The position numbers and the translations under genes were made by a program. 64,000 nucleotides of DNA from Escherichia phage BYEP02, in the sequence record OR757454.1. One strand, 5' to 3'. The notes beneath the pieces are model-generated. The model ran no database searches. It had not been told where the DNA came from and saw only the letters and a program-made list of their open reading frames with translations. Every line of letters starts with the position of its first letter. Position 1 is the stretch's first letter. Positions 28,250 through 63,628 of this stretch are shown one piece after another.

Positions 28250-28323
<74 letters not shown>

Positions 28324-29886: not shown

Positions 29887-29934
29887 AACACTTGCCTTAG
29901 CAGGTGGAACCCCGACAAGGTTGCCGCAAGGCTT

Positions 29935-36010: not shown

Positions 36011-36484
36011 ATGAAAACATATCAAGAATTTATCACTGAAGCAGCTATTAATTCTCAAATTATTGCTGAATCTTTTACTGATCTTTTGAAATTTAAAAAA
36101 GGTCAAAAAATTACTGCTGTATTGGATGATGGTACAGAAGTTGAGATGGATGTACAGGGATATAATTATGCAGTAGATGGAAAACTGTATAATAAATCCC
36201 ATGCTAAATTTGATTCATTTGACGACTTTGTTAATACAGTTGAAGATGAAAAAACTCGTAGATCAATTTCAACTGGTGATGCTAAGGTTCTTATGGCACA
36301 CGGTCATGAACGTATTCGCGCTAAACAGAATAAAATGGGTGAAGATAATTTCGCATTAGTTGGTTATCAATCTGGTAAACAAACTTATGGCTATCAGCGT
36401 ACTGCTACCATGTATAATAAAAATGGTAAAATCGCTTTCGTGAATAGTAAAGGTTCTATTCAGTACGTCAAATCATTCAAATAA
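36011..36484 (+). CDS. Internal head protein-like (CTS leader MKTYQEFITEA), 157 aa
   Basis: N-terminus MKTYQEFITEAAINSQ; basic protein immediately downstream of denV. Confidence 0.6.
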   Translation: MKTYQEFITEAAINSQIIAESFTDLLKFKKGQKITAVLDDGTEVEMDVQGYNYAVDGKLYNKSHAKFDSFDDFVNTVEDEKTRRSISTGDAKVLMAHGHERIRAKQNKMGEDNFALVGYQSGKQTYGYQRTATMYNKNGKIAFVNSKGSIQYVKSFK

Positions 36485-36637: not shown

Positions 36638-37254
36638 ATGAGAACATTTTTAACTGGACCTTATCTATCCCTGATGAATGCTTTTACACACCATTCTGAT
36701 GCTAGAGTAGAAGAAATTTGTAAAAACGATTATATCCCACCATTTGAAGACTTACTCAAACAGTATTGCACACTTCGACTAGATGGTGGACGTCAATCCG
36801 GTAAATCAACTGCCCGCCATTTGAAGAATTACTTAAACAGTACTGCACACTTCGACTAGATGGTGGACGTCAATCTGGTAAATCAATTGCTGTGACTAAC
36901 TTTGCTGCTAATTGGTTGTATGATGGCGGAACAGTTATTGTTCTTTCTAATACTTCAGCTTACGCTAAAATTTCTGCAAATAACATTAAAAAGGAATTTT
37001 CGCGTTATTCTAATGATGATATACGTTTTCGTTTATTTACTGATTCTGTGCGCAGTTTTATTGGTAATAAAGGAAGCAAGTTCAGAGGTTTATCGCTTTC
37101 GCGAATTTTGTATATAATCGATGAGCCTGTTAAATCTCCTGATATGGATAAAATTTACGATATTCATATTGAAACTGTGCACCACTGTTGCAATAGTAAA
37201 TGCTGCATTGGTGGTATTACTCGTCCACAGTTTTTCATAATCGGAATGCAATGA
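36638..37254 (+). CDS. P-loop NTPase-like hypothetical protein; frameshifted by 77-bp duplication 36740-36893
   Basis: Walker A-like GGRQSGKST and Walker B-like LYIIDEP; ORFs 36590..36859 + 36892..37254. Confidence 0.5.
36740..36893. repeat. 77-bp tandem duplication inside P-loop protein gene
   Basis: ccatttgaaga(c/a)ttact(c/t)aaacagta(t/c)tgcacacttcgactagatggtgg... twice. Confidence 0.9.
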
Positions 37255-37588: not shown

Positions 37589-37951
37589 ATGAAAGCATAT
37601 CAAATTCTTGAAGGCACGCATAAAGGTACTATTTATTTTGAAGACGGTATTCAAGCACGAATTATTGTCTCTAAAACCTTTAAAGAGGACTCTTTTGTAG
37701 ACCCAGAAATTTTCTACGGTTTGCATGCCCGTGAAATTGAAATTGAAACACAACCTACAGTTAAAATTGAAGGTGGTCAACACTTGAACGTTAATGTTCT
37801 GCGTCGTGAAACTCTGGAAGATGCAGTTAAGCATCCGGAAAAATATCCGCAGCTGACCATCCGTGTATCCGGTTATGCAGTTCGCTTTAACTCTCTGACT
37901 CCGGAACAGCAGCGCGACGTTATCGCTCGTACCTTTACTGAGAGTTTGTAA
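37589..37951 (+). CDS. Autonomous glycyl-radical cofactor protein (GrcA/YfiD-like; T4 Y06I-like)
   Basis: C-terminal ...[60 protein letters not shown] contains the glycyl-radical RVSGY motif, near-identical to E. coli YfiD C-terminus. Confidence 0.8.
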
Positions 37952-38249
37952 TGGCAAAGATAATTATTGAAGGTTCTGAAGATGTGCTAAATGCTTTCGC
38001 CGAATGGTTTAGTAATTCAGGCGAACAGCAATTTAATGAAGCGTGGAAGGTTCTAAAGATGTGCTAAATGCTTTCGCCGAATGGTTTAGTAATTCAGGCG
38101 AACAGCAATTTAACGAAGCATGGAACATGGGTGATATTAATGGAATTTATCCTACTACAGAAATTTCTGTTCAAGGATATGGCATTCATGAACCTATTCG
38201 TTTAGTTGAATACGATTTATGTACTGGTGAGGAAGTCAAATATGATTGA
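37951..38249 (+). CDS. Hypothetical small protein; frameshifted by 77-bp duplication 37969-38122
   Basis: [73 protein letters not shown]. Confidence 0.5.
37969..38122. repeat. 77-bp tandem duplication inside small gene 37951..38249
   Basis: gaaggttct(g/a)aagatgtgctaaatgctttcgccgaatggtttagtaattcagg... twice. Confidence 0.9.
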
Positions 38250-38845: not shown

Positions 38846-39307
38846 ATGACTATCAATACAGAAGTTTTTATCCGTCGAAATAAGCTCCGTCGTCACTTTG
38901 AGTCGGAGTTTCGTCAAATTAACAATGAGATTCGTGAGGCATCAAAAGCAGCAGGGGTCTCATCGTTTCATCTAAAATATTCTCAACATCTTCTTGATCG
39001 TGCAATTCAACGGGAGATTGATGAGACATACGTTTTTGAATTATTCCATAAAATAAAAGACCATGTTTTAGAAGTTAATGAATTCCTGAGTATGCCTCCG
39101 CGTCCTGACATTGACGAGGATTTTATTGATGGGGTTGAATATCGTCCTGGACGTTTAGAAATCACAGATGGAAATCTTTGGCTTGGATTTACAGTTTGTA
39201 AACCTAACGCGAAGTTCAAAGACCCGTCACTTCAGTGTAGGATGGCAATTATCAACAGTCGTCGTTTACCGGGAAAGGCTTCTAAAGCAGTAATTAAAAC
39301 TCAATGA
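38846..39307 (+). CDS. regB: Sequence-specific endoribonuclease RegB (intact, 153 aa)
   Basis: MTINTEVFIRRNKLRRHFESEFRQINNEIREASKAAGVSSFHLKYSQHLLDRAIQREIDETYVFELF...; matches recalled T4 RegB. Confidence 0.85.
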   Translation: MTINTEVFIRRNKLRRHFESEFRQINNEIREASKAAGVSSFHLKYSQHLLDRAIQREIDETYVFELFHKIKDHVLEVNEFLSMPPRPDIDEDFIDGVEYRPGRLEITDGNLWLGFTVCKPNAKFKDPSLQCRMAIINSRRLPGKASKAVIKTQ

Positions 39308-56845: not shown

Positions 56846-57396
56846 ATGTTATTGACTGGCAAATTATACAAAGAAGAAAAACAGAAATTTTATGATGCAC
56901 AAAACGGTAAATGCTTAATTTGCCAACGAGAACTAAATCCTGATGTTCAAGCTAATCACCTTGACCATGACCATGAATTAAATGGACCGAAAGCTGGAAA
57001 GGTGCGTGGATTGCTCTGTAATCTTTGCAATGCTGCGGAAGGTCAAATGAAGCATAAATTTAATCGTTCTGGCTTAAAGGGACAAGGTGTTGATTATCTT
57101 GAATGGTTAGAAAATTTACTTACTTATTTAAAATCCGATTACACCCAAAATAATATTCACCCTAACTTTGTTGGAGATAAATCAAAGGAATTTTCTCGTT
57201 TAGGAAAAGAGGAAATGATGGCTGAGATGCTTCAAAGAGGATTTGAATATAATGAATCTGACACGAATTTTCTCGTTTAGGAAAAGAGGAAATGATGGCC
57301 GAGATGCTTCAAAGAGGATTTGAATATAATGAATCTGACACAAAAACACAGTTAATAGCTTCATTCAAGAAGCAGCTTAGAAAGAGTTTAAAATGA
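56846..57396 (+). CDS. 49: Endonuclease VII (Holliday junction resolvase) gp49; frameshifted by 77-bp duplication 57189-57342
   Basis: MLLTGKLYKEEKQKFYDAQNGKCLICQRELNPDVQANHLDHDHELNGPKAGKVRGLLCNLCNAAEG...; span minus 77 = 157 codons + stop. Confidence 0.88.
57189..57342. repeat. 77-bp tandem duplication inside gene 49
   Basis: aattttctcgtttaggaaaagaggaaatgatggc(t/c)gagatgcttcaaagagg... twice. Confidence 0.9.
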
Positions 57397-59287
57397 CAAT
57401 TGAAAAAGAAATTGAAGGATTGATTCATAAAACTAATAAAGACCTTTTGAACGAGAATGCTAATAAAGATTCTCGTGTTTTTCCAACTCAACGGGACCTT
57501 ATGGCTGGTATTGTGTCTAAACACATTGCCAAAAATATGGTCCCGTCTTTTATTATGAAAGCGCATGAAAGCGGAATTATTCATTTCCATGATATTGATT
57601 ATTCCCCTGCTCTTCCATTTACTAATTGCTGTTTAGTAGATTTAAAAGGAATGCTTGAGAACGGATTTAAGCTTGGTAATGCACAGATTGAAACTCCTAA
57701 ATCAATTGGCGTTGCTACTGCAATTATGGCACAAATTACTGCACAGGTTGCTTCCCATCAATATGGCGGAACGACTTTTGCGAATGTAGATAAAGTACTT
57801 TCTCCTTATGTTAAACGCACATATGCAAAACATATTGAGGATGCAGAAAAATGGCAAATCGCTGATGCGTTGAATTATGCTCAATCTAAAACAGAAAAAG
57901 ACGTATACGATGCATTCCAAGCTTATGAATATGAAGTAAATACTCTCTTTAGTTCAAACGGGCAAACACCTTTTGTAACAATTACATTTGGTACGGGAAC
58001 TGACTGGACTGAACGAATGATTCAGAAAGCAATTCTGAAAAATCGTATTAAAGGTCTTGGTCGTGATGGGATAACTCCTATTTTCCCTAAGCTTGTTATG
58101 TTTGTTGAAGAAGGTGTTAATCTTTACAAAGACGATCCGAACTATGATATTAAGCAGCTTGCTCTAGAGTGTGCAAGCAAAAGGATGTATCCTGATATTA
58201 TTTCAGCTAAGAACAATAAAGCTATCACTGGTTCATCTATTCCTGTTTCTCCAATGGGATGCCGTAGTTTCTTGAGCGTATGGAAAGATTCGACTGGCAA
58301 TGAAATTCTTGATGGACGTAATAATCTTGGTGTTGTAACACTGAATCTTCCTCGCATCGCGTTAGATTCTTATATTGGAACACAGTTCAATGAACAGAAA
58401 TTTGTTGAATTATTCAATGAACGAATGGATTTGTGTTTTGAAGCTTTGATGTGTAGAATTAGTTCCTTAAAAGGAGTTAAAGCTACTGTTGCTCCTATTC
58501 TTTACCAAGAAGGTGCATTCGGGGTTCGTCTTAAACCTGATGACGATATAATTGAGTTATTTAAAAACGGTAGAAGTTCAGTCAAGAAGGTGCATTCGGG
58601 GTTCGTCTTAAACCTGATGACGACATAATTGAGTTATTTAAAAACGGTAGAAGTTCAGTGTCCTTAGGATACATTGGTATTCACGAATTGAATATTCTTG
58701 TCGGTCGTGATATTGGACAAGAAATTTTAACTAAGATGAATGCTCATCTTAAACAGTGGACCGAAAGAACCGGTTTTGCTTTTAGCTTGTATTCTACTCC
58801 TGCTGAAAACCTTTGCTATCGCTTCTGTAAACTTGATACTGAAAAATATGGAAGCGTAAAAGATGTTACTGATAAAGGTTGGTACACTAATAGTTTCCAT
58901 GTTTCAGTAGAAGAAAATATCACTCCGTTTGAAAAGATTTCTCGTGAAGCACCATATCATTTCATTGCGACAGGTGGTCACATTTCTTATGTTGAACTTC
59001 CTGATATGAAAAATAACCTAAAAGGTCTTGAGGCTGTATGGGATTATGCTGCACAACATTTAGATTATTTTGGTGTTAACATGCCAGTAGATAAATGTTT
59101 TACGTGTGGAAGCACTCATGAAATGACTCCTACTGAAAACGGATTTGTTTGTTCTATTTGTGGAGAAACTGATCCTAAAAAGATGAACACAATAAGAAGA
59201 ACATGCGGCTATCTTGGAAACCCGAACGAACGCGGATTTAATCTCGGCAAAAATAAAGAAATCATGCATAGGGTTAAACACCAATGA
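57393..59287 (+). CDS. nrdD: Anaerobic ribonucleoside-triphosphate reductase NrdD (no intron); frameshifted by 77-bp duplication 58506-58659
   Basis: MTIEKEIEGLIHKTNKDLLNENANKDSRVF...; C-terminal Zn-ribbon CFTCGSTHE...CSICGE and glycyl-radical site RRTCGYLGN; span minus 77 = 605 codons + stop. Confidence 0.9.
58506..58659. repeat. 77-bp tandem duplication inside nrdD
   Basis: caagaaggtgcattcggggttcgtcttaaacctgatgacga(t/c)ataattgag... twice. Confidence 0.9.
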
Positions 59288-63456: not shown

Positions 63457-63628
63457 AATTAATGCAGGATTTACTGAATCTTTGAATGGTCATCTTTGTG
63501 TGAAAATTTCTGAAAAAGAATACCATGATAGTTCAATTAAAGAAGTTAATCCTCCTATTGTAAGAGCAGACCCTAATATGAAAGTGTGGGTTGATTCTTA
63601 TCAAGTCAAAAAATGGTGGCAACTGTGA
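63422..63628 (+). CDS. Possible small protein overlapping the previous gene end (start uncertain)
   Basis: ORF ...VKISEKEYHDSSIKEVNPPIVRADPNMKVWVDSYQVKKWWQL; stop lies in copy 1 of duplication 63620-63773. Confidence 0.3.
   Translation: MMLTHVKFKRLKINAGFTESLNGHLCVKISEKEYHDSSIKEVNPPIVRADPNMKVWVDSYQVKKWWQL

Follow-up and report, generated by a model that had tools for sequence, protein, structure and literature searches.

The vs.6 locus and its product

The gene under study occupies positions 37,589−37,951 on the forward strand of the window, by which we mean the whole 64,000-nt stretch of Escherichia phage BYEP02 (OR757454.1) that was analysed. Read from the sequence, it is an intact open reading frame (ORF) of 120 amino acids, with its ATG at 37,589 and its TAA stop codon at 37,949−37,951. 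A Shine-Dalgarno-like GAGG is located on the same strand 4 nt 5′ of the ATG (37,581−37,584), just after the TGA stop codon of a vs.7 homolog (37,578−37,580), and this arrangement is alike in phages T4 and 236Ecol005PP. At the other end of the gene, the stop codon overlaps the start codon of a vs.5 homolog in the sequence TAATG (37,949−37,953, forward strand), which is also the point where blastn similarity to E. coli DNA ends.

T4 harbours a single homolog of this ORF, the orthologous gene vs.6 (T4 positions 63,557−63,919; NP_049730.1), whose product is named autonomous glycyl radical cofactor GrcA in RefSeq and is also known as Y06I. The two proteins are of the same length (120 aa) and are 98% identical; they differ by only two substitutions, Thr54 and Arg73 in the window against Pro and His in T4, of which Arg73 is also the E. 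coli state. The phrog_1209 profile matches the window protein over its full length (profile positions 1−121 of 121, E = 5.4e-63). The DNA around the gene shares 97−98% identity with that of hundreds of T4-like phages (Tequatrovirus), and vs.6 sits in the same slot as in T4, between vs.7 and vs.5/vs.4 and upstream of regB, in a block (vs.8, vs.7, vs.6, vs.5, vs.4, vs.3, regB) that keeps the T4 gene order in reverse orientation and is also syntenic with 236Ecol005PP. The window gene is vs.6 (Y06I) of a T4-like Tequatrovirus, a gene that is already well known; an earlier reading of the letters alone had placed a YfiD/GrcA-like gene here and had pointed to a counterpart in T4, and both statements are borne out.

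Further along the block, the ORF at 38,242−38,508 is the counterpart of T4 vs.4, which is annotated as anti-CBASS protein 2 (Acb2) in the close relative 236Ecol005PP, and it is followed by regB at 38,846−39,307. On the reverse strand, a 197-aa antisense ORF (37,364−37,957) was rejected as spurious, having no PHROG match and being unannotated in T4. An Rfam scan of positions 37,000−38,600 gave no match, and the sites found in a promoter and terminator scan of positions 36,400−39,400 were not more numerous than in shuffles.

The C-terminal half of the protein is recognized by Pfam as a Gly_radical domain (PF01228, residues 60−101, E = 2.2e-18; 67.2 bits, against a cut-off of 22.2). The near-identity to E. 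coli YfiD that had been predicted for the last 60 residues proved to be complete: residues 61−120 agree with E. coli GrcA 68−127 at every position (100% identity) and are preceded by an Ile at residue 60 where GrcA has Val, and these 60 residues match the GrcA structure 6owr with an E-value of 4.6e-42. Residues 58−120 also align with residues 697−759 of PflB, with 48 of 63 positions identical (76%, E = 4.8e-26). The RVSGY glycyl-radical motif, located at residues 92−96 (37,862−37,876, forward strand), is found in the alignments to both GrcA (6owr) and PflB (1h16), and its Gly95, encoded by the GGT codon at 37,871−37,873, is equivalent to GrcA Gly102 and PflB Gly734. The radical glycine and its flanking motif are strictly conserved among the vs.6 homologs that were compared.

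The window also encodes an anaerobic ribonucleotide reductase, NrdD, whose glycyl-radical domain (58,658−59,287) belongs to the same Pfam family, PF01228. Pairwise BLASTP between Vs.6 and this C-terminal piece of NrdD gave no significant similarity (E = 2.9), and the two domains therefore represent different subfamilies. Vs.6 lacks the similarity to the C-terminus of class III ribonucleotide reductases that would mark an NrdD-type glycyl-radical domain, and the BLASTP result rules out such a reading.

The structural hallmarks of GrcA are all present. Vs.6 is a small (~14 kDa) stand-alone protein in which the C-terminal ~60 residues form the Gly_radical domain; its radical glycine is within RVSGY, close to the PFL C-terminus; and its N-terminal half (residues 22−59) is homologous to that of GrcA (residues 28−66). 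The layout, an N-terminal half followed by a glycyl-radical domain, is that of E. coli GrcA/YfiD (P68066; NMR structure 6OWR), but the N-terminal half of Vs.6 is 7 residues shorter and is without DNA similarity to its E. coli counterpart, and the gene is carried by a phage, outside the ung-grcA context of the host locus. With the C-terminal domain of PflB (residues 697−759; 1H16/2PFL) the protein shares the RVSGY radical loop and the C-terminal helix region, although in PflB this domain is part of an 85-kDa enzyme whereas Vs.6 stands alone. Against the NCBIfam GrcA equivalog model, TIGR04365, the whole protein scores 154.6 bits, below the cut-off of 170, because its N-terminal half is shorter and diverged; taken in isolation, that half had no NCBIfam match. 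Within the GrcA family (TIGR04365 / IPR011140), the protein is best placed in a phage branch of its own, Vs.6 (phrog_1209).

Mosaic structure and origin of the two halves

When the 363-nt gene was compared by blastn with 5426 complete E. coli genomes, it matched only over gene nucleotides 179−363 (37,767−37,951, forward strand), which are 97.3% identical to grcA in all 5426 genomes (E = 2e-81). This 3′ tract corresponds to grcA nt 200−384 and encodes residues 60−120 and the stop codon, that is, the structured glycyl-radical domain. For the 5′ 178 nt (37,589−37,766, forward strand; residues 1−59) there was no DNA match among the same genomes. This AT-rich half is of phage lineage and corresponds to the disordered half of YfiD, the one that binds cleaved PFL. 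The GC3 of vs.6 is 0.22 for the 5′ half and steps up to 0.41 for the 3′ half, as compared with 0.42 and 0.43 in the two halves of E. coli grcA. Past vs.6, host homology as seen in a sensitive blastn with E. coli grcA and its flanks extends only ~7 nt beyond the stop codon and, weakly, ~38 nt upstream. Two other possible sources of the tract, pflB and tdcE, were ruled out, as the best E. coli matches are all to grcA (97.3%) and other places in the genome reach 60−80%.

The N-terminal halves of Vs.6 and GrcA, compared alone over the residues given above, are 36% identical across 39 aligned residues (BLASTP E = 5e-6). Because they are still detectably homologous, the change was a replacement inside a pre-existing homolog and not a fusion to an unrelated N-terminus. 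These comparisons show vs.6 to be a mosaic, in which a grcA-like phage gene, itself old and diverged, has had its catalytic 3′ 185 nt replaced from Escherichia grcA. The horizontal acquisition from the host that the original prediction saw in the whole gene thus applies to 37,767−37,951, while the 5′ half is a phage version that diverged long ago.

The same structure recurs across phages. A search of phage sequences with the whole E. coli grcA matched 752 records, none of which extends into the 5′ half; nearly all of these matches start at grcA nt 199−202, and 638 of the records share 95% identity or more with E. coli grcA. The 5′ boundary of the host-like tract is essentially shared by about 640 T4-like phage genomes, and T4 itself has the same boundary as the window. 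Since the mosaic is common to T4 and to hundreds of independent genomes, it is not an assembly chimera. No earlier account of it was found in the literature that was searched, a search that did not extend to Wagner et al. 2001 itself.

A neighbour-joining tree was built for the 183-nt segment from 81 bacterial grcA genes and 12 phages; in all 200 bootstraps, T4, the window phage and a Mosigvirus cluster with E. coli and a cryptic Escherichia species. In the 3′ segment, the window and T4 lie at synonymous distances (dS) of 0.12 and 0.045, respectively, from E. coli, and the distances from E. coli to Citrobacter (Citrobacter amalonaticus) and to Salmonella are 0.39 and 0.98, in a comparison of 61 codons (57 of them within the tract as delimited) with about 45 synonymous sites. 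E. coli grcA diverges from its relatives to an equal degree in both halves, which points to a transfer from host to phage. The comparisons with these relatives also speak against codon-level selection as the cause of the high 3′ identity. The donor, as judged from these sequences, was an Escherichia, after the split of that genus from Citrobacter and Salmonella.

The window tract differs from E. coli at five positions, four of which are C-to-T changes, and none of the five differences is present in any of the 5426 E. coli genomes. They read as slight drift toward phage composition following acquisition, mostly from GC to AT. Among phages, dN/dS is about 0.15−0.18 for the 5′ half and close to 0 for the tract, in which no amino-acid change separates the window and Mosigvirus copies; the vs.6 family is under purifying selection. 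Homologs of vs.6 are found in 1588 phage records, T5-like and jumbo phages among them, and the gene as a whole is old in phages.

A single ancestral replacement is not the only conceivable history, as repeated gene conversion might instead keep the host-like 3′ half in step with the current host. Such conversion would fit the variation in tract identity to E. coli, which among phages ranges from 95.7% to 99.5% (98.4% in T4, 99.5% in the best phage), and the finding that Klebsiella phages of two genera carry a Leu/Glu variant as in Klebsiella GrcA, where E. coli phages carry the Glu/Lys of E. coli. It would also fit the GC3 step, which is seen in several other genera. In the same direction, dS between T4 and Mosigvirus is 0.17 in the tract and 0.45 in the 5′ half, and two Pseudotevenvirus phages have a larger dS in the 3′ half (1.46) than in the 5′ half (0.64), but these comparisons contain few synonymous sites, and 183 nt is too short to tell one event from repeated conversion.

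Other observations argue against repeated conversion. The five tract differences of the window, absent from the 5426 E. coli genomes and mostly C-to-T, fit drift after a single event, and the 5′ boundary is essentially identical across the roughly 640 phages. When Salmonella grcA was searched against phages there was no match above 90% identity, and with the one Klebsiella sp. (MAG) grcA sequence tested none exceeded 95%, the best full-tract matches being E. coli phages at 86−87%. Recent host-specific patches in other phages were therefore discarded as a candidate, as neither the Salmonella nor the Klebsiella sp. (MAG) query showed a second recent event. We consider repeated conversion improbable. 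It is likewise a doubtful proposition that the catalytic half of vs.6 is a host-tracking module, in which T4-like phages repeatedly overwrite the 3′ half from the grcA of their current host by recombination; if this were true, the domain would stay an exact fit to the PFL and PflA of the host while the N-terminal recognition half remained the phage's own.

Several T4-like genera outside the E. coli phages discussed above deserve mention here. A GC3 jump between the two halves of vs.6 is seen in some of them, for example in KP179 (0.20 versus 0.54). In phages IME-CF2, leB and KP179 (positions 1,501−1,863 in each of the extracted loci L087, L092 and L084, respectively), the 3′ halves are 82−87% identical to enterobacterial grcA, and these may possibly be older host-derived replacements or ones from unsampled hosts.

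Predicted role as a spare part for pyruvate formate-lyase

T4 Y06I and E. coli YfiD have both been reported to restore the activity of PFL that was cleaved by O2 at Gly734 (Wagner et al. 2001, from Knappe's group; PMC8683613), and according to the same source the rescue of cleaved PFL follows installation of a glycyl radical on the small protein by PFL-AE. Residues 61−127 of YfiD take the fold of PFL residues 693−759, and residues 1−60 are disordered and promote both the binding of cleaved PFL and radical installation (PMC8683613). In phages, vs.6 has been listed among the few uncharacterised ORFs that are conserved in all T4-like genomes examined (PMC1524935). Mapped onto YfiD, the host-derived tract (GrcA residues 67−127) corresponds to most of the structured half (61−127); the disordered half, which serves recognition, has its counterpart in the phage-specific half.

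Because Vs.6 of the window is 98% identical to Y06I and, in the catalytic domain, 100% identical to GrcA, it very probably acts by the Y06I/YfiD mechanism, as a 14-kDa spare part for the pyruvate formate-lyase of the host. By this mechanism, oxygen would cleave active PFL at its radical glycine, Gly734, and Vs.6 would bind the cleaved enzyme, its N-terminal half assisting recognition and its C-terminal domain substituting for PFL residues ~696−759. The host activase PflA would put a glycyl radical on Gly95 of Vs.6, and the activity that turns pyruvate into acetyl-CoA and formate would be regained.

A rationale can be suggested along the same lines. Shut-off of host gene expression, as by T4, would leave the cell unable to remake PFL or GrcA, so that the phage would have to supply the part; this would sustain fermentative energy metabolism in a microaerobic infection, beside the phage's own anaerobic ribonucleotide reductase. 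We infer that the benefit to the phage lies in keeping the fermentative metabolism of the host alive. The original prediction had spoken of repair of oxygen-damaged glycyl-radical enzymes at large. Rescue of PFL is what has been reported for Y06I (PMC8683613), and since the domain is PFL-type and not NrdD-type, our results support the repair of host PFL and not that of glycyl-radical enzymes in general.

The same prediction had joined vs.6 with nrdD and nrdG in an anaerobic-growth module. In the window, nrdD, the gene for the class III ribonucleotide reductase, is located at 57,393−59,287 on the forward strand; it is intron-less and is read as two pieces of 411 and 209 aa, with positions 1−358 and 358−562 of Pfam NRDD falling on the first and the second piece, the latter of which also carries Gly_radical. 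It is followed by nrdG (59,284−59,754, forward strand; Pfam Fer4_12 and Radical_SAM), encoding the radical-SAM activase of NrdD. The predicted distance of ~20 kb agrees with the 19.4 kb by which these genes lie downstream of vs.6, with many unrelated genes between, so the module stands as a thematic link and falls as a physical one. Linkage does occur elsewhere: in Aeromonas phage PX29 the vs.6 homolog (1,501−1,878 of locus L094) lies in the order nrdD-nrdG-vs.6-nrdC-nrdH, and in Yersinia phage fHe-Yen9-04 the homolog (1,495−1,857 of locus L093) is found between nrdD and nrdG, an association that is absent from T4-type genomes.

These neighbourhoods leave room for a role related to ribonucleotide reduction, in which Vs.6 would serve the phage's own NrdD, either as a spare glycyl-radical domain or as a radical relay for O2-damaged NrdD, and would be activated by NrdG. 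The presence of vs.6 and nrdD/nrdG in one genome agrees with such a role, as does the speculation, in a comparative paper from 2006, that vs.6 functions in nucleotide metabolism (PMC1524935). We nevertheless hold this role to be very unlikely, given that Vs.6 has no significant similarity to the NrdD C-terminus of the window, that its domain is 100% identical to GrcA and 76% identical to PflB, that the rescue reported is of PFL with PFL-AE (PMC8683613), and that 19.4 kb separate the two genes in the window. Least probable of all is that Vs.6 is a decoy or modulator that titrates host PflA or occupies PFL and so redirects fermentation (for example, formate or acetyl-CoA flux): its host-identical domain would indeed be recognised by host PflA and PFL, and its N-terminal half differs from that of the host, where in YfiD this half governs the binding of cleaved PFL, but the reported effect of T4 Y06I is to restore PFL activity, not to inhibit it (PMC8683613), and strict conservation of the radical glycine and its flanking motif would be superfluous in a pure decoy.

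Both the gene and the function assigned to it have been described before. As vs.6 is a textbook-level T4 accessory gene, its presence in a T4-like genome adds nothing new, and the exact mosaic structure is a modest evolutionary footnote. This footnote does delimit the host-derived part to the base, at 37,767−37,951 (grcA nt 200−384), and it shows that the region to which a role in recognising damaged PFL has been assigned in YfiD is, in vs.6, the phage's own. It provides a clean, datable case in which virulent phages have had part of a gene replaced from Escherichia, a kind of host-to-phage replacement that is thought to be rare because these phages degrade host DNA, and a natural chimera with which to ask about the role of the N-terminal half in spare-part proteins.

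Cyanophage psbA (D1) is another phage-carried replacement of a damage-prone host protein for which patchy intragenic recombination between host and phage has been described. In both systems a component that wears out in the course of infection is provided by the phage, and intragenic exchange with the host copy is seen. They differ in the protein, the host and the chemistry of the damage, and psbA is a full-length copy whereas vs.6 encodes a protein of the size of a fragment.

Duplications of 77 bp in the window

Tandem duplications of two copies recur through the window, roughly one per 1.2 kb: about 54 have a period of exactly 77 bp and two more have one of 81 bp, and the copies are 88−100% identical. 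Examples are found at 437−594, 2,042−2,195, 36,736−36,890, 37,969−38,125 and 58,506−58,659. Neither T4 nor 236Ecol005PP has the duplication beside vs.6 (37,969−38,125); the alternative alleles seen in these two phages are represented in its two copies. As a k-mer length, 77 is common among assemblers. The duplications are most likely an assembly artefact, in which k = 77 overlaps were left untrimmed when contigs or graph edges of a mixed-strain sample were joined, and as a consequence many ORFs of the window would be falsely frameshifted. The vs.6 gene lies wholly between two duplication junctions and is unaffected.

The division of nrdD into two ORFs in different frames (411 and 209 aa) results from the duplication at 58,506−58,659, which rules out an intron or a programmed frameshift as its cause. 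With the duplication removed, the gene measures 1895 − 77 = 1818 nt, or 605 codons and a stop codon. The nrdD of T4 has a group I intron, which the window gene is without.

Two neighbours of vs.6 are interrupted in a similar way. The vs.5 homolog (37,951−38,249; phrog_1986, a 76-aa profile) is split into ORFs of 38 and 68 aa by the duplication at 37,969−38,125, and the vs.8 homolog (36,590−37,254) appears as two ORFs (89 and 120 aa) on either side of the duplication at 36,736−36,890, a split that is probably due to the same 77-bp artefact. Among the repeats, the consensus units at 28,322−28,686 are tRNA-like and those at 29,887−30,050 (period 81) resemble a stem-loop followed by a T-run; the phage tRNA cluster has probably been struck by the duplication artefact as well.
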